Positions 8,308 to 63,459 of a stretch of 64,000 nucleotides of DNA are shown here, in pieces. Source of the DNA: Endomicrobiia bacterium (GTDB taxonomy: Bacteria > Elusimicrobiota > Endomicrobiia > DTEH01); the NCBI GenBank assembly GCA_039630545.1, contig JBCNUU010000003.1, positions 173,512 to 237,511 of the forward strand, written 5' to 3'. The notes under the pieces are model-generated. The model saw nothing but the letters and a program-made list of their open reading frames with translations. It was not told where the DNA came from and ran no database searches. The stretch's first letter is position 1. Each line of letters opens with the position of its first letter. The position numbers and the translations under genes were made by a program.

Positions 8308-11300
8308 ATGTTTTTGAAATTAAAAAAATTTTGGTTCTTAACGGGGTTGATGTACTTTACACAAATACTCTATTCCCTGCCTCAACCGATAACTGATCTT
8401 CAAGTTGTTGAAACTAAATTTAGACAGATAAAAATAAAATGGACTTCTCCTTTATCTGAACAACCTATATTGTATTATCAGATAAGAGTTTCAACATACA
8501 GAGTATTGACTACAGAAGATGACTGGAATAACAACTCTACTGAAACAAGTTATCCTTACATAGTTGAAATAGAAACATATTCCCTGCAGGGACAAACAAT
8601 AAGTTATACTTTTACTAATCTTGAAAATTTTAAAACATACTTTTTTGCAATAAAATCCTCAACTTCTTCAAATAAAGTTCCTCTTTCTTCGATAGACAAC
8701 AATCCCTTTAGACCCTATGCTCAACCTGTAAATCATGCTCCTTACTGGTTAGAAATAGCACCTGTTTGGCCTGCTTATGGAGTATTAGTAACTTCAAACA
8801 ATTTTGTAGGTTTTGACTTTAAAGACGCATATGACGAAGACCTCAACTACGGAGATAGCCTAAAGTATGAACTTTATTATTCTACAAAAGCATCTGCTCT
8901 TTTTGGTTCAACTCCTCCTTTACTTACTGGAGCATATATCGGAAGTGTATTTGGAGTTACTACAAGTTATGTTCAAATTTTAGCTAACAATTTTTCTGAC
9001 AATACAACCTATTATTGGAGAGTTAAAGTAATAGATTATGAAGAAAAATTTAGCTGGTCTATAGATAACTCAGATATCTGTAGGTTTATAATAAATCATA
9101 CTCCAGAAGTTCCTTCTACATTTACACTTATTTTGCCATATTATGGTAAAAAAATCCAAGAAGTTACAGACGGTGTTTTTTTTGACTGGACAGAACCTGC
9201 TGATAACGATCCTTTTGATAGATTTACTTATTCGTTGTACATGTCTTCACAGTCACAAAATTCTGGCTTTTCTTTAGTAGCTGGAGATATTGACTGGTCT
9301 TCTTATACATTAAGTAGTATTTTTGGAAGTAATTGGGTTGAGAATCAGAAGTATTTTTGGTTTGTAAAGGCAAAAGATAGTTATTCTTTGACATCTTATT
9401 CTTTGACTTATTATTTTGTAATAAATTCTTACGAAGAACCTCCTTATAATAATTCTTTAATTACTCCAGGTACTACTGTTTATTTCCCTTTTGATGTTTA
9501 CAATCCGGCTCATGTGCTTTTTACTTTAAAACCTACATTTTATTGGACAGCCTCATCTGATATTGATTTAGAGACAACAATTTATTATCAGTTATTCATA
9601 TCTTCTTTTTCTTCAAATCCAGATGAATTAAATTCTTTATTTTATACAATTTCGCCGATATTTACTACATATTACTATTTATCTCTGGATGTGCTTAAAA
9701 ACAACACAACTTATTACTGGCAGGTAAGAATATGGGATGAACCCTACAGTGGCTATGCAGTTTATTCTTCCAGTCCTTTTTGGTTTTTTACTTGTACAAC
9801 TAACACTCCTCCAAAAGCTGCTATTCTTAAAAAACCTCCTGATAACTTTACTACTTCTTATTTTTATCCAAAATTTGAATGGGATACAGGGAAAGACGAA
9901 GGCTTTAACGCATCCATAAGTTCTCAAGCTTTTATTTTATGGAATAATTTTGAAACAATATATCTGGCGGGACTTTCTAAAAATACAAGCTTTTATATTC
10001 ACTCTGTTGCTTTAAGAAACAACACCACATATTTCTGGCAAGTAATCACCTATGACAACGGCTATCCTCCGCCTCAACTTTCAAGTGGCTCTGCAATTTT
10101 TAGTTTCTATATAAAAAATTCATCACCTTTAGCTTTTAATTTGATTTCTCCTCTTAAAGCACAGATAGTGCAAACTCAAAATATTCAAATTTTCTGGGAG
10201 GAAGCATTAGAACCGGACAGCGAGCCTGTAACCTATAAAGTTATTTATTCTTCAGATAACTTTTTAAGTCTTACTTCTTCTGATGGTATTAAGACTACAA
10301 ATTTTATAATACCCAACTTAAAAGACAATACAACATATTGGTGGTATGTATGTGCTTATGATGTATGGGGGTTTAGAAGTTTTTCTTCAACATTTTACTT
10401 TATAGTTGATAACATATCCCAAAACCCGCTTGGTTTTAATTTAGTTTCGCCACAGAATAATTTTTTAAGTTTGTATCCATCTGTCACATTCTACTGGCAG
10501 TCAACTTCAGATCCGGATCCCTTTGAGAGTGTGTCTTATGAAGTTATTATTTCAACTGAGCTTTCTTTAACTCCTGTATACTTTTCAACAAAAACAGAAA
10601 ACACATATTTTTATGCCGATGAAAAAATACTTAATATAAATACTACATACTACTGGACGGTTGTAGCTATCTCTTCAAGAAGTGGCCAGAGTTTTGCGTC
10701 CAATGGGCCTTTTAAGTTTTCTGTATATAATACAGCTCCTACCAGGCCCATTTTGATTTTTCCTTTAGACAAACAGATAATTACTAAATCTAGTTGTACT
10801 TTAAGTTGGTCAAGATGTGTTGACTTACAGAATGATGAGTTTTATTACGAATTATACATAAGCACCAACAATATAAATTTTGAGAAATTTTATTTAAGCT
10901 CTGTCCAAAACGAATTTCAAGTTAACCTGATAGATGATACTACCTACTGGTGGTATGTGGTAGTGGTAGATACCTTTAACAATAAAAACCACTCAGATAC
11001 TTCTGTCTTTTATACTTCCTACTATAACATAGCGCCTGCAAAGCCAAAAATTCTTCAACCTGTTGATGCACAACTGGTAAATTTACCATATATTATACGC
11101 TGGAGTAGCTGTTCAGATTCAGATATTTTTGATAGGGTAAACTATAGAATAGAAATTTCTACAGATGAAAACTTTTTCTATAAAGTTATAGTTAACTCTC
11201 AACCTCACACCTCGTATCTTTTAGAAGAATTTAAACTTTCTTTTGGAACTTATTATTTAAGAGTAATAGCTTATGATACTTCTATTTATGAAAGTTATTC

Positions 11301-12516
11301 AGACACGATAAGTTTTATAATTCCCTTGTATAATGTTCAGTTATTTTCTCCACAAAATCTTCAAACAATTACTGCTTTGCCGATTATTTTTAGCTACTCA
11401 AAGGTAGAACCTATAGTTTTACACGATACGATTACTTATAAAATAGTTTACTCAAGCAGTAACAAATTTGATTTTAAAAATGAAATAAAAACTTTTTCTA
11501 CATTTTACTTGGTCTGTTTACCACCTATTTTACCTGCTACATATTTTTGGTATATAGAAGTCTCAGATTCGCATTTGAACATGTCAAAAAGTCAAATCTA
11601 TAGTTTTATAATTCCTTATATATTGCCACCTCCATTGTTAGATGTTTCTGTTTCTACTTCTTCTGAAGGTTTACTGCTTTCATGGGAAAGTTTAAATTTT
11701 GAAAATTTCTGGTGTTATAGAATATATAAAGGGTATGAAACAGAAAACATGCAACTTATAGGTTCAACAACAGAGCATTTCTTTTTAGATAGATATGGTT
11801 TGCAAGGAGAGTTTTATTATACAATAAAGACAGTAAACCAATTTGGCATTGAAAGTGAAAATAATAAATACATCAAACTTTTAAATGGTAAACAGGTAGA
11901 TTTTTATTTTAGTCAGGATAGAATAGTTACTGTATTAATTCCCAAAACAGAAGGTCTTTCCTGGGTGGATATACAAAAACTTATCCAGTATGAAAACGAA
12001 GTATGTCCTTATGTATATGAAATTTTATCTTCAAAAAACAAAACTGACGATTTTTTTCAAATTCAATTCATAAAACCACAGGGTATTGAAAACTACTCTA
12101 TTCAGTATTATGATGGTAATTTATGGCAAGATATGTTTTCTTATGAAGTTCAAGAAAAAATCACAGTTAATACTCAATATTTAGGCAGGTACCGTTTAGT
12201 GTTACTTCAGGCACCAGATAATAAGAGAATTACCATAATTGGTTGTTCACCCACTAAGAAAATAATTACTCCCAATAATGATGGTTACAATGACTATATA
12301 GAATTCCACTATGAAGTGGGTTCTTACATTATTGGATATTTATACGATGTAAATTTGAAAAAAATCTGTAAATTAAAAAATAAAGATAAAAATATATTAT
12401 ATTTTGATGGAAAAAATGAAGATGGAAATTTTATTCCTCCGGGAATTTATATTTATTACATAACATCACAGTTAGATAATAGAAGTTTCACAGGAACTGT
12501 TGTAATCAAATACTGA
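8308..12516 (+). CDS. Large secreted fibronectin type III repeat protein with T9SS type-B-like (CHU_C/FlgD-Ig) C-terminal domain
   Basis: Signal peptide; about 10 FN3-like units ending in L.(D/N)NTTY(Y/W)W.V...D; C-terminus ITPNNDGYND...FDGKNEDGNFIPPGIYIYYI...FTGTVVIKY. Confidence 0.8.
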   Translation: MFLKLKKFWFLTGLMYFTQILYSLPQPITDLQVVETKFRQIKIKWTSPLSEQPILYYQIRVSTYRVLTTEDDWNNNSTETSYPYIVEIETYSLQGQTISYTFTNLENFKTYFFAIKSSTSSNKVPLSSIDNNPFRPYAQPVNHAPYWLEIAPVWPAYGVLVTSNNFVGFDFKDAYDEDLNYGDSLKYELYYSTKASALFGSTPPLLTGAYIGSVFGVTTSYVQILANNFSDNTTYYWRVKVIDYEEKFSWSIDNSDICRFIINHTPEVPSTFTLILPYYGKKIQEVTDGVFFDWTEPADNDPFDRFTYSLYMSSQSQNSGFSLVAGDIDWSSYTLSSIFGSNWVENQKYFWFVKAKDSYSLTSYSLTYYFVINSYEEPPYNNSLITPGTTVYFPFDVYNPAHVLFTLKPTFYWTASSDIDLETTIYYQLFISSFSSNPDELNSLFYTISPIFTTYYYLSLDVLKNNTTYYWQVRIWDEPYSGYAVYSSSPFWFFTCTTNTPPKAAILKKPPDNFTTSYFYPKFEWDTGKDEGFNASISSQAFILWNNFETIYLAGLSKNTSFYIHSVALRNNTTYFWQVITYDNGYPPPQLSSGSAIFSFYIKNSSPLAFNLISPLKAQIVQTQNIQIFWEEALEPDSEPVTYKVIYSSDNFLSLTSSDGIKTTNFIIPNLKDNTTYWWYVCAYDVWGFRSFSSTFYFIVDNISQNPLGFNLVSPQNNFLSLYPSVTFYWQSTSDPDPFESVSYEVIISTELSLTPVYFSTKTENTYFYADEKILNINTTYYWTVVAISSRSGQSFASNGPFKFSVYNTAPTRPILIFPLDKQIITKSSCTLSWSRCVDLQNDEFYYELYISTNNINFEKFYLSSVQNEFQVNLIDDTTYWWYVVVVDTFNNKNHSDTSVFYTSYYNIAPAKPKILQPVDAQLVNLPYIIRWSSCSDSDIFDRVNYRIEISTDENFFYKVIVNSQPHTSYLLEEFKLSFGTYYLRVIAYDTSIYESYSDTISFIIPLYNVQLFSPQNLQTITALPIIFSYSKVEPIVLHDTITYKIVYSSSNKFDFKNEIKTFSTFYLVCLPPILPATYFWYIEVSDSHLNMSKSQIYSFIIPYILPPPLLDVSVSTSSEGLLLSWESLNFENFWCYRIYKGYETENMQLIGSTTEHFFLDRYGLQGEFYYTIKTVNQFGIESENNKYIKLLNGKQVDFYFSQDRIVTVLIPKTEGLSWVDIQKLIQYENEVCPYVYEILSSKNKTDDFFQIQFIKPQGIENYSIQYYDGNLWQDMFSYEVQEKITVNTQYLGRYRLVLLQAPDNKRITIIGCSPTKKIITPNNDGYNDYIEFHYEVGSYIIGYLYDVNLKKICKLKNKDKNILYFDGKNEDGNFIPPGIYIYYITSQLDNRSFTGTVVIKY

Positions 12517-13949
12517 TGAAAAAGAAAGCTATATTATCTTTTATATTTTTTGTAATTTTTAAAACTGAAATATTTCCTTTTACTGAAATTTCTTTTGTAG
12601 GTTATCCGTTTTCTGTAAATAGTGTAGTTATTAATCCTGCAGCAGCTGGATTGCTTAATAATAAGTTCAATATAGAATTAGGCTATGGATGGTTATATGG
12701 AAATGTTTTAGAAAATGCTTTATATACTACCCAGATAGCTTCTGCAGTAAACTTAAAAAAAGTATTTCTGGGTCTGCTTCAGGAAGCTTTTGTATTAGAA
12801 AATATTTATTCAGAAGAAGTTTATATATTAAATTTTGGATGTAAACTTCTTAATAAAAAAATTTTTTTGGCAAGTGCTTTTAGATATTATGTTTTTAAAT
12901 ATTTCTATGATGAATACTACGAAAACGATCCTTTGAAAGAAGATCGAGTTTTTACATATAATTTTGATTTGGGGTTAATATGTGAACTTTTTAATAATCT
13001 TTTTGTTTCATTAAGCGGTATAAATATATATGAAAACCGACTCGGAAAAGAAATTAATTTTTTGTTGCCTAAAAAGTATATTTTTGCTTTGTTTTATAAA
13101 TATCTTGATGAAGGTTCTTTTAATTTTGAGGTAGATTTTAAACACATACAGATCTCTGACCGGAAACAAAATGAACTAAGTTATAAGTTGGGAATATCTC
13201 AAAGGGTTTTTTCTTTTAGAAATTTTAGTTTTGACTTATCAGCTTTTTTAAGAAAAGACGGAGATTCCTTTGGATTTTTTTTCTCATTTTATAATAAATT
13301 TCTCAATAAGTTAGGGTTAAGATATATATGGGAGTATCCAGTATCTGATATACAAAAGTTTATAGGCAACCATTACATTATTTTAGATTTTGAATTTGGA
13401 AAAAAAACACAACCTGTTATAGAAGAAAAGTCTCTTACAGAAAAGAAAACATTAAAAGAACAAAAGCAGTCACAACCCGCATCTATAGATGGGAGTTCTT
13501 TATCTAAAGAGCAACTCAAACAAGAAGTTTCAAAACCAGAAATAAAGATATCTACAATTTCACCGAGCTTCAAAGAGTTAGAAACAAAAACATACCAGTT
13601 AACACAAAAATCCACAAATTTCGAAGGGTCTCCGTCTAAAGAAGAAAAAATCGCTTTAGAAAAAAAGCTTTATTTATTAGATGTTTCGACACATCCCTTA
13701 ATTTCAAAAACCACACCTTATAAAGAACCTCAACCTAAAAAAGAACAACTACCACCCACCAAACCACTTGTTTTATATTATAAATTTCCTTTAGCGCATA
13801 AAGTTAAAGAGGGAGAAACTCTTATTAGCATTTCAAAGAAATATTATAATACTGAGAAATACTGGAAAAAGATATACGAAGCAAACAAAGACAAAATAAT
13901 AAAAGGAGTCCCAATAGTAGGGGAGATTTTAATAATTCCTGAGCCTTGA
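12516..13949 (+). CDS. PorP/SprF/PorV-like outer-membrane beta-barrel with C-terminal LysM domain
   Basis: Signal peptide, early NPAAAG motif, alternating aromatic strands ending GNHYIILDFEF, a K/E/P-rich linker, and LysM (HKVKEGETLISISKKYY...W.KIYEAN...LIIP). TGATG overlap with the upstream gene. Confidence 0.7.
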   Translation: MKKKAILSFIFFVIFKTEIFPFTEISFVGYPFSVNSVVINPAAAGLLNNKFNIELGYGWLYGNVLENALYTTQIASAVNLKKVFLGLLQEAFVLENIYSEEVYILNFGCKLLNKKIFLASAFRYYVFKYFYDEYYENDPLKEDRVFTYNFDLGLICELFNNLFVSLSGINIYENRLGKEINFLLPKKYIFALFYKYLDEGSFNFEVDFKHIQISDRKQNELSYKLGISQRVFSFRNFSFDLSAFLRKDGDSFGFFFSFYNKFLNKLGLRYIWEYPVSDIQKFIGNHYIILDFEFGKKTQPVIEEKSLTEKKTLKEQKQSQPASIDGSSLSKEQLKQEVSKPEIKISTISPSFKELETKTYQLTQKSTNFEGSPSKEEKIALEKKLYLLDVSTHPLISKTTPYKEPQPKKEQLPPTKPLVLYYKFPLAHKVKEGETLISISKKYYNTEKYWKKIYEANKDKIIKGVPIVGEILIIPEP

Positions 13950-14074
13950 ATGGAATGTATACATTGGTGTTTTAGATTTATACTAAAATTAAAAGTTTAT
14001 TTACAAAATAATTTTGCTTCTTTAATATCTTTTTGAAAAGTTTTTCAAGAATTTGGAGATTTATTTTTTACTTG

Positions 14075-14103
14075 TTGCTAAATTAAAAAAATTATAGTAA
14101 ATT
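14075..14103 (+). promoter_or_regulatory. Candidate sigma-70 promoter TTGCTA-N17-TAAATT
   Basis: 17-bp spacing in a 187-bp intergenic gap, GGAGGTG RBS downstream, and a near-identical 20-mer upstream of etfB. Confidence 0.4.
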
Positions 14104-14136
14104 ATATTAGATAGTTTTTTACGGAGGTGACTTCTT

Positions 14137-15096
14137 ATGGTAGATGAGGAAGAAAAATTTTATAGCTGGGAGGAAATAGAAAAAGAACTCTCAGAACTTG
14201 AACTTCAGTATGGTGACAGTGACGAAATAGTAAAAAATCTCATAACACCGTCAGTGTCAGCATACTGGAGAAAAAAATTAGAAGAAGAAAAAATTTTATA
14301 TGAAAAAATGCTGCAAACCAAAGAGGAAGAAAAAAAACAGATTTTGTTAAAATTACAACAGCAACAGGAAATAATAGAGGATTTAAAAAAACAAATAGAA
14401 AAGTTAGAACGAGGAGAATACGAAAAGTTAAAAGACAAATACGAAGAACTTAAACTCAAAGAAATAGAGATAGAAAAAGAAAAAGAAAAAATTATCTGGC
14501 AACAACAAATTCAAGGACTTGAGTTTGATAAAAAAATAATTCAGCAAGAAATTGAAAAGACTAAAAGAGAGTATGAACAACAAAAACAGGAGTTGCTTGT
14601 CTACTATAACAGACAATTTAGTTCTTTATTGGAAGTTCAAAATCAACTGCTTGAAGAAACAAATAGTTTAGAACAGGAAATTGACAATATAATTAAAGAA
14701 ACAAAAGAAGAGATTTTAAAAGCAAATAAACAGATAGAAGACTACTCAAAAGAAATAAATAACTTGAAAACGATTATAGAGAGTATAAAACAAGAAAAAG
14801 AAATTATTCTTACAGAAAAAAATAATTTAGTCAAAAAAATAGAAGAAATAAAACAACAATCTTTTCAAGACAAAAGACAACTTTTGACAGCGATAGTTCA
14901 AAATGTTAAAATTTATATAAATGACATAAGAAGTTTATGTGGTTTAATAATAGCTGCTGTTAATTTTATGATGAAACATTCAAAATTTAAAAAATCTGCC
15001 AGATTTCATCAAGAGCTTATTCTTAACACTGTTCAACGGATAATAAGTATCTTGGATGAAATTATTAAGTCAATACTTGAATATCCAATAGTATAA
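14137..15096 (+). CDS. Long coiled-coil protein with degenerate (His-less) HisKA/DHp-like C-terminus
   Basis: E/K/Q heptad-rich body; C-terminal INDIRSLCGLII...ELILNTVQRIISILDEII; strong GGAGGTG RBS. Confidence 0.7.
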   Translation: MVDEEEKFYSWEEIEKELSELELQYGDSDEIVKNLITPSVSAYWRKKLEEEKILYEKMLQTKEEEKKQILLKLQQQQEIIEDLKKQIEKLERGEYEKLKDKYEELKLKEIEIEKEKEKIIWQQQIQGLEFDKKIIQQEIEKTKREYEQQKQELLVYYNRQFSSLLEVQNQLLEETNSLEQEIDNIIKETKEEILKANKQIEDYSKEINNLKTIIESIKQEKEIILTEKNNLVKKIEEIKQQSFQDKRQLLTAIVQNVKIYINDIRSLCGLIIAAVNFMMKHSKFKKSARFHQELILNTVQRIISILDEIIKSILEYPIV

Positions 15097-15098
15097 AA

Positions 15099-16247
15099 AT
15101 GGATGAAAAATTATTATTTGTTTATTCTAAAGAAAAAAGGATATACCTTCCTGAAGTTTTATTTAAAGAATACCAAATAAGAGCGATACCTTCTAACTTA
15201 AAAATATCAAGAGAAATTCTTGAATATAAACCACAGATAATATTATTAGATGAATTTGTACAGTTTGGGTTAGCGAAAAAAATATGTAACAGGTTTAAAT
15301 TTATACCGATTGGAATAGTAGGATACTTTGAAAAACCCAAAAAAATTGAAAATTTTTTAGAGTTAGGCGTGAATATAATAAATCTTAATCAGCCTCAAGA
15401 AGAGATAAATTCAACCATAAAAAATCTTTTATGGTTTTCTTTGTCAAAACAAGAGATATGGGATGAAGAATATAAAATTTCTAAAAGTGAGAACATAAAA
15501 GAGAAAATCTGGAACATTTCTAAAATTTTTATTGAAATATTTGTGATTTTATTATTAGTAGTAGGTGTACCTAAACTTTACAATTTTATTATTTCGCACA
15601 AAAAACTTTTTTATGAGTTAGATGTTGGTTATATCACTGCATGTGATGTATGTATTGTGGGAGATAGATACATACTTAACGATTGGACATTGAGAAATTT
15701 ATTTGAATATGGACAAACAAATGATAAGCTTCTTAAGATGTATGTTCCGCAGGAGCAAATAAATTCTTTATCTGTTAATCACAGCTATGCTGTAGCATTT
15801 TCTATGTTTACAGAGAAGATTTATTTATATAAATATCCTGAGTTTTCTTTGATTACATCTACAGAGCTGTTAAAAAATACAACAGTTTTGTCTATTTATA
15901 TAGATGAAAACAATCACCTTTATCTTTTAGACAATAAATCCGCATTTTATGAATTTGTAATAAAAGATAATAGATTTGTTTTTATTTCATCCTTTGTAAT
16001 AAAGGAAATTTTTCCTTTGGATGTTGTAGTGAAAAATGAAGATATCTATATTCTTGACAATGCGAATAATATACATAGATTGAAAAAAAATAGTTATAAA
16101 AAAGAAAAAACTATAGTTTTTTCTCAATTTTTTGATATTAAACAATATAAATTCAGCTCATTTGCTTTTAGTGAAAGGTGGCTTTATTTAGTAAGTGAAA
16201 AAGATAAAAAAGTATTTAAGTTACCTACTAATATCTTGAAAATATAA
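15099..16247 (+). CDS. Membrane protein: receiver-like N-terminus, one TM helix, C-terminal beta-propeller-like domain
   Basis: KPQIILLD receiver-like motif, TM IFIEIFVILLLVVGVP, NHL-like blades (LSIYIDENNHLYLLD, PLDVVVKNEDIYILD). Confidence 0.65.
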   Translation: MDEKLLFVYSKEKRIYLPEVLFKEYQIRAIPSNLKISREILEYKPQIILLDEFVQFGLAKKICNRFKFIPIGIVGYFEKPKKIENFLELGVNIINLNQPQEEINSTIKNLLWFSLSKQEIWDEEYKISKSENIKEKIWNISKIFIEIFVILLLVVGVPKLYNFIISHKKLFYELDVGYITACDVCIVGDRYILNDWTLRNLFEYGQTNDKLLKMYVPQEQINSLSVNHSYAVAFSMFTEKIYLYKYPEFSLITSTELLKNTTVLSIYIDENNHLYLLDNKSAFYEFVIKDNRFVFISSFVIKEIFPLDVVVKNEDIYILDNANNIHRLKKNSYKKEKTIVFSQFFDIKQYKFSSFAFSERWLYLVSEKDKKVFKLPTNILKI

Positions 16248-53795: not shown

Positions 53796-54950
53796 ATGAA
53801 TTTTTTGAAAGTAAAAGGCAGCAGCTATGAGATGGGCTTTCAGCAAGGAGAGTTTTTTTGTGAAGATATAAAAAGTAGTTTTAGTAGACTTGTGAGGTCA
53901 ACTGCAATAAAAACAATAAAACCTAAGTTTCTGCCTGGATTTATTTTTTCTCAGATACTTAAACGGATTTTATATAAAAAATGGAAAAAACCAATAGAAA
54001 TTCTTACCCCTGAATTCTCAGAAAGAATAAAAGGTATCTCTGAGGGTGCAAGAGTTGATATAAGAGATTTATATGTTATTCAGAGTATAGAAGTAATGGC
54101 TGATGATATTAGTTACTTTTTAAAAGATACTAAAAATTTTGTCCCTTCAGGATGTTCCTCTATATGTATTATGCCACATTTGTTTAAGGGAAATGAGATT
54201 ATTCTGGCTAAAAATTTTGACTACTTAAGTGAATTTTTAAATGATCAGGTTGTAAGAATAAGTCAGCCAAAAAAGGGATATAAAAGTATAGAAATAACAT
54301 ATAAACAAATCGCAGGTTGTCATGACGGAATGAATGAAAAAGGTCTTGTTGTACTTTACAACTATGGGTTAACAATTGAAAAAATTCAAATAAGAATTCC
54401 TATTACTATCTTAGTTCAGCAAATTCTTGAAAGATGTGCAACCGTGGATGAAGCTGTTATGTTTATTAAATCATTTAGATATCCAAACGGTGCAATACTT
54501 ACTTTAGCTGATGCTTACAACCAGGCTGTTTGTATAGAGTTGACTCCAGAACATATTGGTTTAAGGAAACCACAAAATGGTGTATTAGTTGCCACCAACT
54601 TCTACTTATCCGATGAAGTTAAAAATTATGATATTCCACATAACGCATACTTTAAAAAGAAAAATCTACCACAACAGCTTCAAAACAAAAGAGTCCATCA
54701 ATCCAGTGAAGAAAGATATTATAGAATCCTCCAGTTGATAAATAAAAAAAACTATTATTCTTTAGAAGAAATTATAGACATTTTAAAAGATCACAACAAT
54801 AAACCTGAAGGTGATGACGATACTATCTGTCGCCATGGAGAACTACTTTCAACTCAAACAAGTATTATATTTTTGCCTAAAAAAAGAAAAATAAAAGTTT
54901 GCTTTGGTTTGCCATGCAAAAATGTCTATACGGAGTTTGTTTTAGATTAA
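53796..54950 (+). CDS. C45-family autoproteolytic Ntn acyltransferase/hydrolase
   Basis: GSSYEMG.QQG, E.I.GI.EGA, putative nucleophile GCSS, LAKNFDY, DGMNEKGL, ATNFY, SEERY.R, ICRH. Confidence 0.82.
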   Translation: MNFLKVKGSSYEMGFQQGEFFCEDIKSSFSRLVRSTAIKTIKPKFLPGFIFSQILKRILYKKWKKPIEILTPEFSERIKGISEGARVDIRDLYVIQSIEVMADDISYFLKDTKNFVPSGCSSICIMPHLFKGNEIILAKNFDYLSEFLNDQVVRISQPKKGYKSIEITYKQIAGCHDGMNEKGLVVLYNYGLTIEKIQIRIPITILVQQILERCATVDEAVMFIKSFRYPNGAILTLADAYNQAVCIELTPEHIGLRKPQNGVLVATNFYLSDEVKNYDIPHNAYFKKKNLPQQLQNKRVHQSSEERYYRILQLINKKNYYSLEEIIDILKDHNNKPEGDDDTICRHGELLSTQTSIIFLPKKRKIKVCFGLPCKNVYTEFVLD

Positions 54951-55036
54951 ATTTTTCTTCAGGTTGAAATTAGTTTAGATTTTTAGTAAAAATAGAATTA
55001 AAAAATTAAACTTTTAAAAATAAGGTTTAAATTTAT

Positions 55037-57079
55037 ATGATAAATTTACTAAAAATAGTAAATTTATTTGCAGCATTTTTTAATTTTTCTTTATCAGTGG
55101 CAGTAACACAGTGTAGACTTCCTTCCTTTAAGGATCTAAGAAACATAAACCTTGGAGTTTTTCTTTTAGCATTAACTTCTGCTTTGTGGTCCCTTAATAT
55201 GAGTTTGATGCTTTTTTGTAAGGAGAATATTTTAGTTGCTGAGATTTTTTCAAGACTTAACTGGATAGGTTCTTTTGTTGTAGCAAGTTATACATATTTG
55301 AGTTTGTCAATGACAAAACAGTATAAAAAAGCTGTAGTAATAGGTATTTTGCAATATATTTTTGCGCTGTTTTTTACGATTATAGCTTTTACAGAGTATG
55401 GAATAGTAAAAGTAATTTCTTGTTATCCACTTAAACGAGAATTTGGAGTTATTGCTCCTTTTTTTAGATTTTGGATAATGATATCTACAATTTATTCTGT
55501 GTGGTTAACAATAAATCATTACTTTAAGACAAAAGGTATGGAGAGATTGCAGTTTCAGTATTTTACTTTTGGCATTTTAGTATATGCTATAGTAGGTTCA
55601 GTTTTTAATTCAATCTTGCCGCTATTTGGATATGAAGGGTTAATATATCTTACTCCTTTCTTTTCTATCATATGGGTGCTTGCTTCGTTTTATTCTATTC
55701 ATAGTTATAAGCTTTTAGATATAGAAGTGGTGTTCTGTGATGTAATAAAATTTGCTGTGTTTATATTTATTGGTGTATTTGTAAATTATATTTTAATAAA
55801 TGTTTTTATAGAATTTGCTTCTTTGAATCCTTTATGGAGTTCGACATTAAGTGTGATAATAGTAGGCACTATATATTTCGCTACACCTATAAGAGAAAGA
55901 ATCAACAACACTATAAGAAACATAGTTTTAAGAAAAAGAACATCCTATCAAAAACTTTTAGAAAACACTGCAGCAGCTGTAGTTGAAATCCTGGATTTAG
56001 ACAATTTGCTTCAGTATGTGTTAAAACAAATAAATTCTTCACTTGGAGCAACAAAAATTTGTGTATTTTTGTTAGATGAAGAAACCAAAGACGAAGAAGG
56101 TGAACCAGTTTATGCTTTAGCTGCTTCTTATGGAATTGAAGAATTTAAAGTTACTTATTTTAAACAAAAAAAGATTATTAACTGGCTTAAAAAACATAAA
56201 GAACCCTTTCTTTTGGATGTTGCGTATCATACAATGGCACCAACTGAATACAAGCAGTTAGCAGATGATGCTGCTTTATTTGGGGCAATAATTATAGTTC
56301 CTATCATTTATAAAGGTGAGCTTATCGGTATAATAACTCTAGATCAGAAAAAAACAGATGGCACCATATTTGATATAGAAGATATAGAAATACTTAAAAC
56401 ACTTTCAGAGCAATTAGCGGTTGCTATACAAAATAGTAAAATTTATAAAGAGTTAAACACAGCTTATTTGCAGATTACCAGAGCTTTATCTTTAACTTTA
56501 GAATCAAAAGATGAGTATTTAATAGGACATTCGGATAATGTTACAAAATATGCTGTTCTTCTTGCTAAAAAATTAGGATTAAGTGAAAGAGACATATATA
56601 TTTTAGCACAAGCTTCTGTATTACATGATTTAGGAAAAGTTGGTATCCATGACTATATATTAAGTAAACCTGGAAAACTCACAAAGGAAGAATGGGAAGA
56701 GATGAAACAACATCCAATAAAAGGAGCAAAAATTCTTCAAGCTCTTCCGTTTTTAAACGATGTAGCGCGTATTATTCTTTATCATCACGAACACTACGAT
56801 GGTACCGGCTATCCAGAAGGACTTAAAGGAGAACAGATCCCTCTTCTTTCAAGAATACTTACTTTAGCAGATTCTGTAGACGCTATGTTGTCTGAGCGTC
56901 CTTATAAAGAAAGAAAAATGACAGTAGATGAAATGTTAACCGAAATAATTTCTCAGAAAGGCAAACACTTTGATCCATTCCTTGTAGATAAATTTGTTGA
57001 ATTGATAAAAGAATATCCTGAAATATTTAAACCTTCAAATCAAAAAAAGTCTGATGAAAGATCTGGAAATAATAACTGA
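55037..57079 (+). CDS. Membrane sensor HD-GYP phosphodiesterase (multi-TM, GAF, HD-GYP)
   Basis: About 9 TM helices, GAF (VPI..KGELIGII.L..K...F..EDIEIL.TL.EQLAVAI), GHS..V, LHDLGKVG, HHEHYDGTGYP.GLKG. Confidence 0.92.
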   Translation: MINLLKIVNLFAAFFNFSLSVAVTQCRLPSFKDLRNINLGVFLLALTSALWSLNMSLMLFCKENILVAEIFSRLNWIGSFVVASYTYLSLSMTKQYKKAVVIGILQYIFALFFTIIAFTEYGIVKVISCYPLKREFGVIAPFFRFWIMISTIYSVWLTINHYFKTKGMERLQFQYFTFGILVYAIVGSVFNSILPLFGYEGLIYLTPFFSIIWVLASFYSIHSYKLLDIEVVFCDVIKFAVFIFIGVFVNYILINVFIEFASLNPLWSSTLSVIIVGTIYFATPIRERINNTIRNIVLRKRTSYQKLLENTAAAVVEILDLDNLLQYVLKQINSSLGATKICVFLLDEETKDEEGEPVYALAASYGIEEFKVTYFKQKKIINWLKKHKEPFLLDVAYHTMAPTEYKQLADDAALFGAIIIVPIIYKGELIGIITLDQKKTDGTIFDIEDIEILKTLSEQLAVAIQNSKIYKELNTAYLQITRALSLTLESKDEYLIGHSDNVTKYAVLLAKKLGLSERDIYILAQASVLHDLGKVGIHDYILSKPGKLTKEEWEEMKQHPIKGAKILQALPFLNDVARIILYHHEHYDGTGYPEGLKGEQIPLLSRILTLADSVDAMLSERPYKERKMTVDEMLTEIISQKGKHFDPFLVDKFVELIKEYPEIFKPSNQKKSDERSGNNN

Positions 57080-57488
57080 AAAAATTTTTTTGTCTACTGA
57101 TGGGAATATAGATATAATAAATATTACTTCTTATTTATCTGAGATAATAGCTAAAAAGCAAATTCAAGACGGCATCCTTACTGTTTTTGTCCCAGGTGCT
57201 ACAGGTGCAGTAACTACTGTGGAGTATGAAAAAGAACTAATAAAAGATACAAAAGAAATGTTTTTAGAAATTATAAAAGAAAACAAAACATATCACCATA
57301 ATTCAACACATTTTCACGGAAACGCCACATCACATTTAAGAGCCACAATCATAGGGCCTTCTTTGACTATTCCTATAACAGATGGTAAACTACATCTGGG
57401 TGTCTGGCAAGAAGTTGTATTTATTGATTTTGACAACAGGCCAAGAGATAGGGAACTTGTTGTCAAGATAATAGGAGTAAAAAAATGA
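57054..57488 (+). CDS. yjbQ: YjbQ/UPF0047 family protein
   Basis: FVPGATGAVT..EYE, Y.HN, GNA.SHLRA, L.LG.WQ.V..IDFD.RPR.R. Confidence 0.9.
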   Translation: MKDLEIITEKIFLSTDGNIDIINITSYLSEIIAKKQIQDGILTVFVPGATGAVTTVEYEKELIKDTKEMFLEIIKENKTYHHNSTHFHGNATSHLRATIIGPSLTIPITDGKLHLGVWQEVVFIDFDNRPRDRELVVKIIGVKK

Positions 57489-58810
57489 TAAACGATATTT
57501 TTGCAAAATGTTATAAATTTATAGACGCAAGACAGGCACAACTTTTAGGTATATACCCATATTTTAAACCCATATCTACTGCACAAACCTCAGAAGTAAT
57601 AATAAACGGCGAAAGAAAAATTGTTTGTTGCTCTAATAACTATTTAGGTCTTACAGTTCATCCTAAAGTTAAGCAGGCAGCTATAAAAGCTATTAAAAAA
57701 TATGGAACAAGTTGCACTGGTTCAAGGTTTCTTAGTGGGTCTTTAGATTTACACGAAGAGGTTGAAGAAAAATTTGCAAAATTTATAAACAAAGAAGCAT
57801 CTATTCTTTTTACTACAGGTCATCATGTTAATCTTGGTGTAATATCTGCCTTGGTAAACAGAGGCGAGGTTGTAATTACAGATAAGTTAGATCATGCTTC
57901 TATAATTGATGGATGTATGATAGCAGAATATTTTGGTGGTGAAATGGTGAGATTTAGACACAACAACATGGAAGATTTAGAAAGGATTCTTAAAAAATAT
58001 GAAGACAAACCGAAACTCATAGTTGTAGACGGAGTTTTTAGTATGGAAGGTGATATATGTAACCTTCCTGAGATTATAAAACTTGCAAAGCTTTATGGTG
58101 CAAGAGTTATGGTGGATGATGCCCATGCTTTAGGGGTTTTGGGTAAAAATGGATGTGGAACTGCGGAGCATTTTGGACTTGAAGCAGAAACTGATCTTAT
58201 AATGGTTACTGCCTCTAAATCGCTGGCCTCCATTGGAGGTTTTATAGCAGGAAGAGAAGAAGTAATACACTACATAAAACATCACGCAAGATCTTTAATT
58301 TTTACTGCTGCTCTTCCTCCAGCTCAGGTTGCTGCGATTTCTGCTGCTTTAGATGTAATAAAAGAAGAACCCGAAAGAAGAAAAAGACTCTGGGAGATAA
58401 CAAACAGAATGCTTAAAAGTTTCAAAGAGTTAGGTTTTAACACAAGAAATTCACAGACTCCTATAATTCCTGTACTTATAGGTGGAGGAATACAAAAAGT
58501 ATTTTCTTTCTGGAGAGCTTTATATGATGAGGGAGTTTTTACTTCACCTGTTTTGCCTCCTGCTGTTCCGGAAGGAGAAGAGTTAATAAGGACAAGTTAT
58601 ATGGCTATTCATACTGATGAGCAATTAGAATTTATTATTGAAAAATTTGCTAAAGTTGGAAGAAAATTTGGTTTGATTCCTGGAGGAGGTTTACCAAAAG
58701 GTAAGATAATTAAGTTAAAGAAGACATCCTTTCCAAGAAAATTAGCAAAAAGATTTTTTGTGGAAACTAAACGGTGGATGAAGAAGTTATTTTTAGCAAA
58801 GCAAAAATAA
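57485..58810 (+). CDS. spt: Serine palmitoyltransferase-like alpha-oxoamine synthase (PLP)
   Basis: GIYPYF N-terminus typical of bacterial SPT, SNNYLGL, GSRFL, DKLDHASIIDG, DGVFSMEGD, DDAH, TASKSLASIGG, IRTSYMA.H; adjacent to a CerS-like gene. Confidence 0.75.
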   Translation: MINDIFAKCYKFIDARQAQLLGIYPYFKPISTAQTSEVIINGERKIVCCSNNYLGLTVHPKVKQAAIKAIKKYGTSCTGSRFLSGSLDLHEEVEEKFAKFINKEASILFTTGHHVNLGVISALVNRGEVVITDKLDHASIIDGCMIAEYFGGEMVRFRHNNMEDLERILKKYEDKPKLIVVDGVFSMEGDICNLPEIIKLAKLYGARVMVDDAHALGVLGKNGCGTAEHFGLEAETDLIMVTASKSLASIGGFIAGREEVIHYIKHHARSLIFTAALPPAQVAAISAALDVIKEEPERRKRLWEITNRMLKSFKELGFNTRNSQTPIIPVLIGGGIQKVFSFWRALYDEGVFTSPVLPPAVPEGEELIRTSYMAIHTDEQLEFIIEKFAKVGRKFGLIPGGGLPKGKIIKLKKTSFPRKLAKRFFVETKRWMKKLFLAKQK

Positions 58811-58824
58811 AATGTATAATTTTT

Positions 58825-59952
58825 ATGAAAATAAAAACTGTAGAAAACAACAAAGATCTGTTAAAATTTATCAAATTTCAATGGGAGGTTTACAGAAACG
58901 ATCCTTACTGGGTTCCACAACTTATATCTGATTTAAAACTTTTATTTGATGAAAAGAAAAATTATTTCTGGGAACATGCAGAAAAAAAGTTATTTTTTTT
59001 AGAAGACAATACTGGAAAAATTTTAGCAAGAGCAGCCGGTATAATAGATTACAACTTTATAAAATTCCACAACGAGAACACAGGTTTTTTTGCTTTTTTT
59101 GATTGTTTGAATTTAGAAAACTCAAAAGAAATATCATCCGCTATTTTGTCTGCTGTGGAAGAATGGCTTAAAAAGAAAGGAATGACTAAAATGTTAGGTC
59201 CAACAGCACCCTCTACAAACGATGAGATGGGACTTTTATATGAAGGATACGGAGTTGAGCCGGTACTTATGATGCCATATAATCCTTCCTACTATCACGA
59301 TTTATTGTTAAACTATGGATTTAAAAAGGCAAAAGATCTTTATGCCTACAAAATTACAAAAGAGACATTAGAAAAACAAAGAATTGAAAAATTAATAGAA
59401 GCAATTAAAAGAAAACAACCTTCTTTAGTTGTAAGACCCGTTAATCTTAAAAATTTTAAGCAAGAAATTGCCTATGCTGTTGAAGTTTACAATGCTGCAT
59501 GGGAGAAAAACTGGGGGTTCGTTCCATGGACTCAAAAAGAATTTATTTCGCAAGCTTTGAGGTTAAAACCACTTCTTAAGCCAGAATTTGTTTTACTTGC
59601 TTTTATAAAAGAAGAACCTGTAGGAATTATGATCACTGTTCCTAATTATAATGAAGTATTAAAAAAGCTAAATGGAAAACTGGGACCTTTTGAATTATTG
59701 AAATTTCTTTATTATAAAAATAAAATTAAATCTCTAAGAATAATGGTAATGGGAGTAAAAAAGGAATATAGAAACAAAGGAATAGAAGTCTTGATGTATT
59801 ACCATACGATGCTTGAGGGTTTAAAACAGGGTTATGAATGGGCAGAGCTTTCTTGGATACTTGAAGACAACCATATGATGATAAAAGCTGCTGAAGCGCT
59901 GGGAGGAATTCTTTATAAAAAATATAGAGTTTATGAGAAGATAATATGTTAA
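58825..59952 (+). CDS. cerS: Bacterial ceramide synthase-like tandem GNAT (YghO family); start taken at ATG 58825
   Basis: FIKFQWEVY.NDPYWVP.L, F.EHA, G.F.FF, WL...GM..M.GP...STNDE.GLL, MPYNP.YY, YN.AWE.NWGFVP, ELSWILEDN, KKYRVYEK. Confidence 0.75.
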   Translation: MKIKTVENNKDLLKFIKFQWEVYRNDPYWVPQLISDLKLLFDEKKNYFWEHAEKKLFFLEDNTGKILARAAGIIDYNFIKFHNENTGFFAFFDCLNLENSKEISSAILSAVEEWLKKKGMTKMLGPTAPSTNDEMGLLYEGYGVEPVLMMPYNPSYYHDLLLNYGFKKAKDLYAYKITKETLEKQRIEKLIEAIKRKQPSLVVRPVNLKNFKQEIAYAVEVYNAAWEKNWGFVPWTQKEFISQALRLKPLLKPEFVLLAFIKEEPVGIMITVPNYNEVLKKLNGKLGPFELLKFLYYKNKIKSLRIMVMGVKKEYRNKGIEVLMYYHTMLEGLKQGYEWAELSWILEDNHMMIKAAEALGGILYKKYRVYEKIIC

Positions 59953-62070: not shown

Positions 62071-63459
62071 ATGGTTTTAAGATTTAACAAACACAGAAGA
62101 ACGCTTGAACAAGACGAATACAGATACGAACTTCAAGATGTAGATGAGCCTAACTTGTTTAGAGATATTTTTTCATATGAAGAAATTCCTAAAATTCCAT
62201 TTAATCACCGCTTAGTACCAATGAATCCTGCAGAAGAAATATGGATTACAGACACAACCTTTAGAGATGGTCAGCAAGGTTTTGGAAATTTTACAGTAGA
62301 ACAAATTGTTGACCTTTATAAACTCATGTCAGAACTTTCGGGGCCAAATGGTGTGATAAGACAGACAGAGATGTTTATTTATACTGAAAAAGACAGAAAA
62401 GCTCTTGAGGAATGCAGAAAACTGGGACTAAAATATCCTGAAATTACCTCCTGGATAAGAGCAAATGAAAAAGACTTTGAACTTGTAAAACAGATGGGAC
62501 TTAAAGAAACAGGAATACTTGCTTCTGTTTCAGACTATCATATTTTTTATAAATTGAAAATGAAACGAAGTCAGGCAATGGCACAATACTTAAGAATAAT
62601 AGAAAAAGCTCTTGAGATGGGAATAATCCCAAGAGTACACTTCGAGGATATTACAAGAGCTGACTTTTATGGGTTTGTCGTACCATTTGCAAGACAACTT
62701 ATGAAGTTAGCGCACGAAGCGAAAATGCCAGTTAAAATAAGAGCGTGTGATACTTTAGGATACGGTGTAACCTATCCTGGTGCATCATTGCCAAGGAGTG
62801 TTCCTGGTATAATATATGGATTAACACGCCTTGCTGGAGTGCCATCTGAATGGCTTGAATGGCATGGCCACAATGACTTTTATTTTGGAGTTGTTAACGC
62901 TACAACTGCCTGGCTTTATGGATGTTCAGCAGCAAATGGTTCTTTGTTAGGCATAGGAGAAAGGACAGGTAACACTCCAGTTGAAGCTTTAGCTATAGAG
63001 TATGTCGCTTTAAGAGGTGAAACCAACGGCATGGATCTATCTGCAATCACAAGAATAGCAGAATATTTTAAAGAAAAAATTGGCTACAAGATTCCTCCCA
63101 ATCAACCATTTGTTGGTGAAAACTTTGCTAAGACTCGTGCAGGAATACATGCTGATGGACTGTTGAAATACGAAGAGATTTATAATATTTTTAACACAGA
63201 AAAAATTCTTGGAAGAAAACCGGAAGTAGGCATTTCTGATAAATCTGGTTTAAGTGGGATTGCGTATTGGATTAATACAAAGCTCAAAATTCCGGAGAAT
63301 GAGTGGATTCCTAAAAACCATCCAGGTATCCTTAAAATAAAAGAATGGATAGACGAGCAATACAATGTTCATTATAGAGTAAGTGACATTTCTGACGAAG
63401 AAATGTGGGATTTAGTTAAAACTCACTTACCAGATATTTATAACAAATATAAAAAATAA
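62071..63459 (+). CDS. Re-citrate synthase (LeuA-like DRE-TIM metallolyase)
   Basis: EPNLFRDIF.Y.EIPKI.F, ITDTTFRDGQQ, SVSDYHIF.KL, EDITRAD, EWHGHND, GERTGN, TRAGIHADG; no LeuA regulatory domain. Confidence 0.82.
   Translation: MVLRFNKHRRTLEQDEYRYELQDVDEPNLFRDIFSYEEIPKIPFNHRLVPMNPAEEIWITDTTFRDGQQGFGNFTVEQIVDLYKLMSELSGPNGVIRQTEMFIYTEKDRKALEECRKLGLKYPEITSWIRANEKDFELVKQMGLKETGILASVSDYHIFYKLKMKRSQAMAQYLRIIEKALEMGIIPRVHFEDITRADFYGFVVPFARQLMKLAHEAKMPVKIRACDTLGYGVTYPGASLPRSVPGIIYGLTRLAGVPSEWLEWHGHNDFYFGVVNATTAWLYGCSAANGSLLGIGERTGNTPVEALAIEYVALRGETNGMDLSAITRIAEYFKEKIGYKIPPNQPFVGENFAKTRAGIHADGLLKYEEIYNIFNTEKILGRKPEVGISDKSGLSGIAYWINTKLKIPENEWIPKNHPGILKIKEWIDEQYNVHYRVSDISDEEMWDLVKTHLPDIYNKYKK

Follow-up and report, generated by a model that had tools for sequence, protein, structure and literature searches.

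A putative ceramide-type lipid pathway in an Endomicrobiia bacterium: adjacent genes for a serine palmitoyltransferase-like enzyme and a ceramide synthase homologue

Two adjacent genes, spt and bcerS, are carried by a stretch of 64,000 nucleotides from an Endomicrobiia bacterium (assembly GCA_039630545.1, contig JBCNUU010000003.1, positions 173,512 to 237,511 of the forward strand), which we call the window and from whose first letter positions are counted. It is likely that they encode a serine palmitoyltransferase (Spt) and a bacterial ceramide synthase (bCerS), which would make a ceramide-type lipid from serine. This reading, drawn from sequence comparison, rests on the homologies of the two proteins, on the position of the first one in trees and its catalytic residues, on the synteny seen in relatives, and on the lack of biotin, tdh and acyl-activating genes. 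Its core is ordinary: the host is new, and the pathway is a known one that had already been inferred in some 40 phyla. The source genome (G000, of the family labelled f1) comprises 1.60 Mb in 82 contigs, with 29.4% GC and a completeness of 95.5%. The features involved are as follows.

57485..58810, + strand: Spt-like pyridoxal phosphate (PLP) alpha-oxoamine synthase, 441 residues, of the Bacteroidota/delta-type branch, with the Endomicrobiia signatures CSNNYLG, TGHHxN and xTASKS
58679..58807, + strand: C-terminal extension of Spt, residues 399-441, with 15 Lys/Arg against 1 Glu and a predicted amphipathic helix at its end
58825..59952, + strand: homologue of the bCerS / YghO family, a tandem GNAT protein of 375 residues, named from the YghO alignment, a structural model and GNAT matches
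57054..57488, + strand: yjbQ/UPF0047 gene (TIGR00149), sharing 4 bp with the beginning of spt, given as context

Two enzymes encoded side by side

The spt gene stops with a TAA codon at 58808-58810 and the ATG of bcerS follows on the same strand at 58825, after a gap of 14 bp, in contrast with a passage of PMC11324152 according to which cerS is always part of another operon. The first open reading frame displays GIYPYF (residue 22), SNNYLGL (50) and GSRFL (79), and the second DP.WVP.L (26), STNDE.GLL (130), MPYNP.YY (150), NWGFVP (229) and ELSWILEDN (341). An initial annotation, made from the sequence by a model, had quoted both frames, these eight motifs and the gap; all are indeed there.

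That annotation had also taken the PLP enzyme for an Spt rather than a BioF or a Kbl, and family models, structures and trees support this assignment. The best NCBIfam model is SerpalmtaseCFB, with 509 bits as against 389 for BioF and 363 for Kbl, and the best solved structure is the serine palmitoyltransferase (SPT) of Sphingobacterium multivorum (388 bits, E 6e-115), a BioF/Kbl enzyme reaching 288 bits. An IQ-TREE phylogeny of 33 rows places the enzyme in an eight-row clade of class relatives, the Endomicrobiia type (100/100), nested in a 19-row clade (96/96) together with the experimentally tested Spt of E. coli BL21, to which it is 38% identical, and separate from BioF enzymes of bio operons (98/98) and from the Kbl outgroup. 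A FastTree phylogeny, made with 85 of 125 collected sequences once near-duplicates had been dropped, agrees with this picture; the E. coli enzyme is the only experimentally tested Spt in these trees, and HemA, cysteate fatty-acyltransferase (CFAT) and S. multivorum SPT are in neither. A well-supported clade of Spt-related enzymes of about 420 residues, from genomes around two Bacteroidota-labelled metagenome-assembled genomes (L125, L126, L135-L150), diverges at the base of the Spt-like enzymes.

One might still argue for a BioF or Kbl lying next to an unrelated GNAT gene, as public annotation labels many of the homologues 8-amino-7-oxononanoate synthase and as this is the sole alpha-oxoamine synthase found in G000. 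We hold this to be very improbable. A grouping with BioF or Kbl, named in the initial annotation as refuting its proposal, is seen in neither tree; the bioB and bioD models stay under their cut-offs in G000, where contig C1 has a 30% bioA-like match, and E. coli Tdh finds no match there. Relatives carry true BioF and Kbl enzymes besides: among 17 second alpha-oxoamine synthases fetched from them, 13 lie beside bio genes and one beside tdh, and the clustered enzyme is therefore a separate paralogue, the linkage of which to bCerS extends across phyla.

Active-site positions were mapped through sequence alignment to S. multivorum SPT (PDB 3A2B / 8GUH), of the Bacteroidota/delta-proteobacterial subgroup, for which PLP- and serine-binding residues are described in PMC10196870. 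The PLP, catalytic and serine-binding residues are common to both enzymes: N51, G79, S80, F82, H137, S186, D211, H214, T242, S244 and K245 are kept, giving the PLP lysine (K245) together with the His/Asp/His/Thr/Ser/Asn set. The PLP motif is not an exact GTFSKS; it reads VTASKS, a class-wide variant that retains the SKS core. Indeed 111 of the 120 closest homologues combine TGHH, TASKS and CSNN, in place of the TG(F/Y)Q, GT(F/Y)SKS and GSN of the Spt-like enzymes of other groups, and it is by these three motifs, by its 43-residue basic tail and by its score under the family cut-off that the enzyme differs from S. multivorum SPT. An activity of the CFAT kind, making capnine or sulfonolipids, would fall within the same superfamily, and a solved CFAT does match with E 3e-69. 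This match has 237 bits against 388 for SPT; moreover, at the positions where, according to PMC13692747, cysteate enzymes are told from the Spt type, CFAT has Ala82, Lys280 and no Asn117 equivalent, and the window's enzyme has Ser80, Ala275 and Asn116, all of the Spt type when mapped by position. A role as CFAT is accordingly hardly to be expected.

The basic tail has a hydrophobic moment of 0.68, tied for the highest among the 18-residue segments of the protein, and forms a helix (418-438) in the AlphaFold model, with a predicted local distance difference test score (pLDDT) below 50. This model is of moderate quality (pLDDT 71, with both the tail and the PLP-lysine loop below 50) and was not used for contacts. 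An end of the W..L(W/F) type is found in 85 of the 94 long-tailed homologues present among 120 proteins, and one may guess that the tail docks to the membrane or to an acyl carrier protein (ACP). We did not count as evidence its association with the missing acyl-CoA synthetase, because the tail seems to have been lost once, in related genera. Spts from other Elusimicrobiota (L008, L009, L015) have a similar Trp-containing C-terminal tail but an ordinary GTFSK motif, so that tail and pocket may have separate histories.

The GNAT protein aligns from end to end with YghO of E. coli BL21 (31% identity, E 8e-65), a homologue of the Caulobacter ceramide synthase CC_1154 (PMC9386255); NWGFVP is identical in both proteins, and conservation of the remaining four motifs is partial. 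This full-length homology upholds the bCerS call of the initial annotation, and the tandem GNAT fold that it had proposed is recovered as well, with a Pfam GNAT match at residues 42-133, matches of a 40-sequence profile to solved GNATs at 276-366, and two repeated alpha/beta units in the AlphaFold model (pLDDT 94.6). Atlas matches belong to the GNAT family in 30 cases out of 30, and a sequence search found no solved structure of a bCerS relative. Of 80 loci retrieved from many phyla for their bCerS homologues, 52 contain an Spt-like gene, so the pairing of spt with bcerS is not due to chance. Second bCerS paralogues occur in some Myxococcota loci (L068:7262-8383, L075:7213-8310) and in some Elusimicrobiota genomes (G117, G120 and others).

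A candidate reductase and the gene order of relatives

The known pathway combines Spt, bCerS and a ceramide reductase (CerR), encoded respectively by CC_1162, CC_1154 and CC_1164 in Caulobacter and by ECD_02854, yghO (ECD_02850) and ECD_02852 in E. coli BL21, and all three types have homologues in G000. The window contains no CerR candidate, as the initial annotation had stated, and the genome-wide search that it recommended for a CerR-like short-chain dehydrogenase/reductase (SDR) yields one on contig C34 (C34:31781-32761, minus strand), the best G000 match of the E. coli BL21 CerR homologue (23.5% identity, E 7e-22). A profile built on 32 cluster-linked reductases from other phyla gives 223 bits to E. 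coli CerR, which is outside the set, and at most 108 bits to the other SDRs of G000; the 280 bits of the C34 candidate are inflated, since the members of the profile were picked by similarity to it. The 61 genomes of the class hold an Spt-type enzyme in 57 cases, bCerS in 59, a C34-type reductase in 58 and all three in 56 (genome counts here and below are descriptive, because kin are not independent).

If adjacency is taken as a distance of up to 600 bp between two genes, the reductase gene adjoins spt and spt adjoins bcerS in 39 of the 51 class genomes outside the window's family, with cerR directly upstream (the count includes G058, whose spt is split over two contigs). The window's family differs from these relatives: spt and bcerS are adjacent and the reductase lies on another contig in 10 genomes out of 10. 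We can therefore understand the window as retaining two genes of an ancestral cerR-spt-bcerS operon. The yjbQ gene now sits where relatives carry cerR, an order of yjbQ and spt that, of 13 loci compared, is shared by L001 and L002 and absent from the remaining 11. Across phyla, a homologue of the C34 reductase is found in 44 of the 80 bCerS loci (2-11 kb).

This separation in the whole family, the lack of a reductase at each of 19 loci in the phylum's other classes and the low identity to E. coli CerR would also be expected if the C34 protein were not a ceramide reductase, the product then being an oxidised (3-keto) ceramide or being reduced by some other enzyme. We consider this quite unlikely: of the 58 genomes holding the gene, 57 have one copy of it, it clusters with spt outside the family, and the cluster-linked profile separates E. 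coli CerR from the other SDRs of G000. As a separate observation, genome G031 (L109, L110) has a class-type Spt standing alone; its divergent bCerS (27%) is encoded on a separate contig, a CerR orthologue was not found, and G198, of the same genus, also shows a weak bCerS match.

Proposed pathway and what weighs against it

In the pathway that we propose, Spt would produce 3-ketosphinganine by condensation of L-serine and a long-chain acyl thioester, bCerS would N-acylate this product, and the C34 reductase would then probably reduce the keto group to yield dihydroceramide. Serine is the presumed amino acid, and acylation would precede reduction, an order that is disputed (PMC11087976, PMC11324152). 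Both acyl groups may come from housekeeping acyl-AcpP supplied by the fab cluster of contig C4, the basic tail would hold Spt at the inner membrane, and the product would join lipopolysaccharide (LPS) in the outer membrane.

It is in the acyl donor that G000 departs from the known pathway. Spts of Bacteroidota use acyl-CoA (PMC11324152), and the known donor in proteobacteria is a dedicated acyl-AcpR loaded by AasR. No acyl-CoA synthetase was found in G000, nor a dedicated AcpR, AasR or any other AMP-binding (adenylate-forming) enzyme; for the AMP-binding enzymes a tblastn search with six of them, taken from relatives, gave the same answer, so that the dedicated ACP and acyl-ACP synthetase of the rhodobacterial AasR/AcpR-dependent variant are both missing. 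The nine other members of the family lack an AMP-binding enzyme as well (10/10 with G000); such an enzyme is present in 36 of 37 genomes of family f4 and lacking in 20 of the 61 class genomes. The single ACP of G000, at C4:29916-30176, belongs to a plsX-fabH-fabD-fabG-acpP-fabF cluster on C4 (fabH, fabD and fabG being named from their translations). With no acyl-CoA or acyl-ACP synthetase in the family, housekeeping acyl-ACP would be the likely donor.

Several points weigh against the making of a ceramide-type lipid from serine by this route. Tested proteobacterial Spts make only weak use of acyl-AcpP. The 509 bits of the PLP enzyme do not reach the 640-bit equivalog cut-off of NF047600 (SerpalmtaseCFB), which is passed in none of the 61 class genomes; cluster-linked enzymes of one Corallococcus and one Ignavibacteria genome, at 514 and 593 bits, miss it too, and when bona fide Bacteroidota Spts were sought, 0 of 20 were over it. 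The CerR match is only 23.5% identical in a family, the extended SDRs, that is large, and the comparisons used E. coli homologues, not the tested Caulobacter bCerS and CerR. In contrast with Caulobacter (bioRxiv 10.64898/2026.04.12.717747), G000 has neither a second LptFG pair nor a ceramide-kinase-family gene over cut-off, and its completeness stops at 95.5%. Finally, the pocket differs from that of S. multivorum SPT by Phe114->His, Phe242->Ala, Gly50->Cys, Ala79->Thr, Met271->Ile and Ser273->Thr, and another amino acid is therefore possible. The same three steps would then lead, by way of a class-specific pocket, to a 1-deoxy-type or other non-serine long-chain base; the joint swap of TGHH, TASKS and CSNN in most of the closest homologues would fit such a pocket, and S. 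multivorum SPT itself is reported to accept alanine and glycine. Yet the serine-contacting residues N51, G79, S80, H137, T242 and S244 are retained, and since Phe114 reportedly touches the PLP phosphate via its main chain, its replacement by histidine may be neutral. We see a non-serine base as improbable, and retain serine as the presumed substrate.

Host genome, relatives and significance

The low-GC, diderm and Elusimicrobiota-like host predicted by the initial annotation agrees with the genome. Its GC content has been given above; LpxC, a WaaA-like gene and a single LptFG pair support a diderm with LPS; and the best named matches of the window's PheS are Endomicrobia and Elusimicrobiota, as are the nearest named relatives of spt and bcerS. 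Recent horizontal transfer was rejected, as the GC of both genes, overall and at third codon positions, is that of their neighbours and the Spt tree follows class kinship. Promoter and terminator scans stayed at chance level (53 against 49.8 and 6 against 5.4). Directly upstream, at 53796-57079, lie a C45-family autoproteolytic acyltransferase and a membrane-GAF-HD protein, probably outside the pathway because their order recurs only in the two closest named loci. Farther away, 62071-63459 encodes a DRE-TIM metallolyase under all NCBIfam cut-offs, which we take to resemble the Re-citrate synthase of anaerobes, and 8308-16247 a 1402-residue Ig/Fn3 protein, after which come a protein ending in LysM and a pair of frames without convincing family.

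At the level of the phylum, bCerS homologues were found in 172 of 201 genomes drawn across Elusimicrobiota, and at the 19 loci fetched from other classes spt was adjacent in 17 and a reductase nearby in none. Genus g6 (44 genomes of 0.2-1.4 Mb) is probably a reduced-genome endosymbiont lineage, to judge from genome size and from tree neighbours named Endomicrobium; it has an Spt-type enzyme in 29 genomes, a bcerS match in 33 and a cerR match in 32. All three genes are missing together from 4 of its 17 high-quality genomes, and all three are broken in G229. Such joint loss points to one pathway, dispensable in some lineages.

In three relatives spt persists as an eroded remnant between cerR and bcerS: G023 (L104:5713-8112), G012 (L105:4901-7692) and G229 (L202:2755-5260). 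They form one clade in the bcerS tree (100/99) and, less firmly, in that of cerR (80/85). Both remaining genes are open in G012 and G023 and broken in G229. Between G012 and G023 the ratio of nonsynonymous to synonymous substitution rates (dN/dS, NG86) is 0.17 for bcerS and 0.15 for cerR, at dS values of 0.72 and 0.80 respectively; pairs with an intact spt span ratios of 0.10-0.30 (purifying selection), a range into which both fall. These values fit a salvage of outside long-chain bases, and bCerS and CerR of these two genomes are thus candidates for the use of imported sphingoid bases, slow decay being the other candidate. Against salvage, both genes are broken in G229, which is near G023, spt could have been lost more than once, and in G023 the lipid A genes are also broken and an AMP-binding enzyme is missing.

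G232 (L198, L200) shows another combination: lpxD, lpxA and lpxB are lost, an lpxC remnant lies at the syntenic site, a bamA-like gene and the fabZ half are intact, and cerR, spt and bcerS are all retained (neighbour genes being named from translations and order). By search alone G227 (L201) has the same loss of lipid A and retention of ceramide genes, both genomes being 83% complete. They are candidates for an outer membrane that would bear sphingolipids and no LPS. Replacement of LPS as a general rule was rejected, with LpxC present in G000 and an lpxC match in 35 of the 44 genus-g6 genomes. One may go further and imagine in Endomicrobiia a third form of bacterial ceramide synthesis, independent of acyl-CoA and of any dedicated carrier, in which a tail-anchored Spt and a bCerS would both be fed by housekeeping AcpP; the pathway would moreover have been adapted to life in a host, with G012 and G023 keeping bCerS and CerR under selection so as to salvage host bases and G232 having swapped lipid A for sphingolipid in its outer membrane; we put this forward as a tentative and rather doubtful scheme.

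Spt homologues co-located with bCerS and CerR have been described in uncultured anaerobes from Black Sea metagenomes as an 'Spt-like' clade B, with Spt-like genes in 38 phyla of that study and a total of 40 (PMC11334938). The main text of PMC11334938 does not mention Elusimicrobiota, and neither does that of its preprint or of PMC12619533; the phylum may be among the taxa of the supplement to PMC11334938. The comparative genomics of Endomicrobia (PMC11257099) mentions neither sphingolipids nor ceramide in its main text or in three of its four supplementary files. The initial annotation had made its novelty depend on the lineage not being already shown to make sphingolipids; we found no literature linking the phylum to their synthesis, in a survey that did not cover two key taxon lists.

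The consequence of these observations is that sphingolipid production becomes probable for most of a phylum whose members include gut dwellers and endosymbionts of protists, and that many of the '8-amino-7-oxononanoate synthase' labels in the class are probable misannotations. The parts most worth testing are the acyl-donor gap, the spt-less relatives and the relatives lacking lipid A. A natural Spt/bCerS pair in genomes devoid of an acyl-activating enzyme is a testable departure from the known pathway, and the spt-less relatives would offer a test of a bacterial route of sphingolipid salvage, a question that PMC11324152 describes as unresolved.

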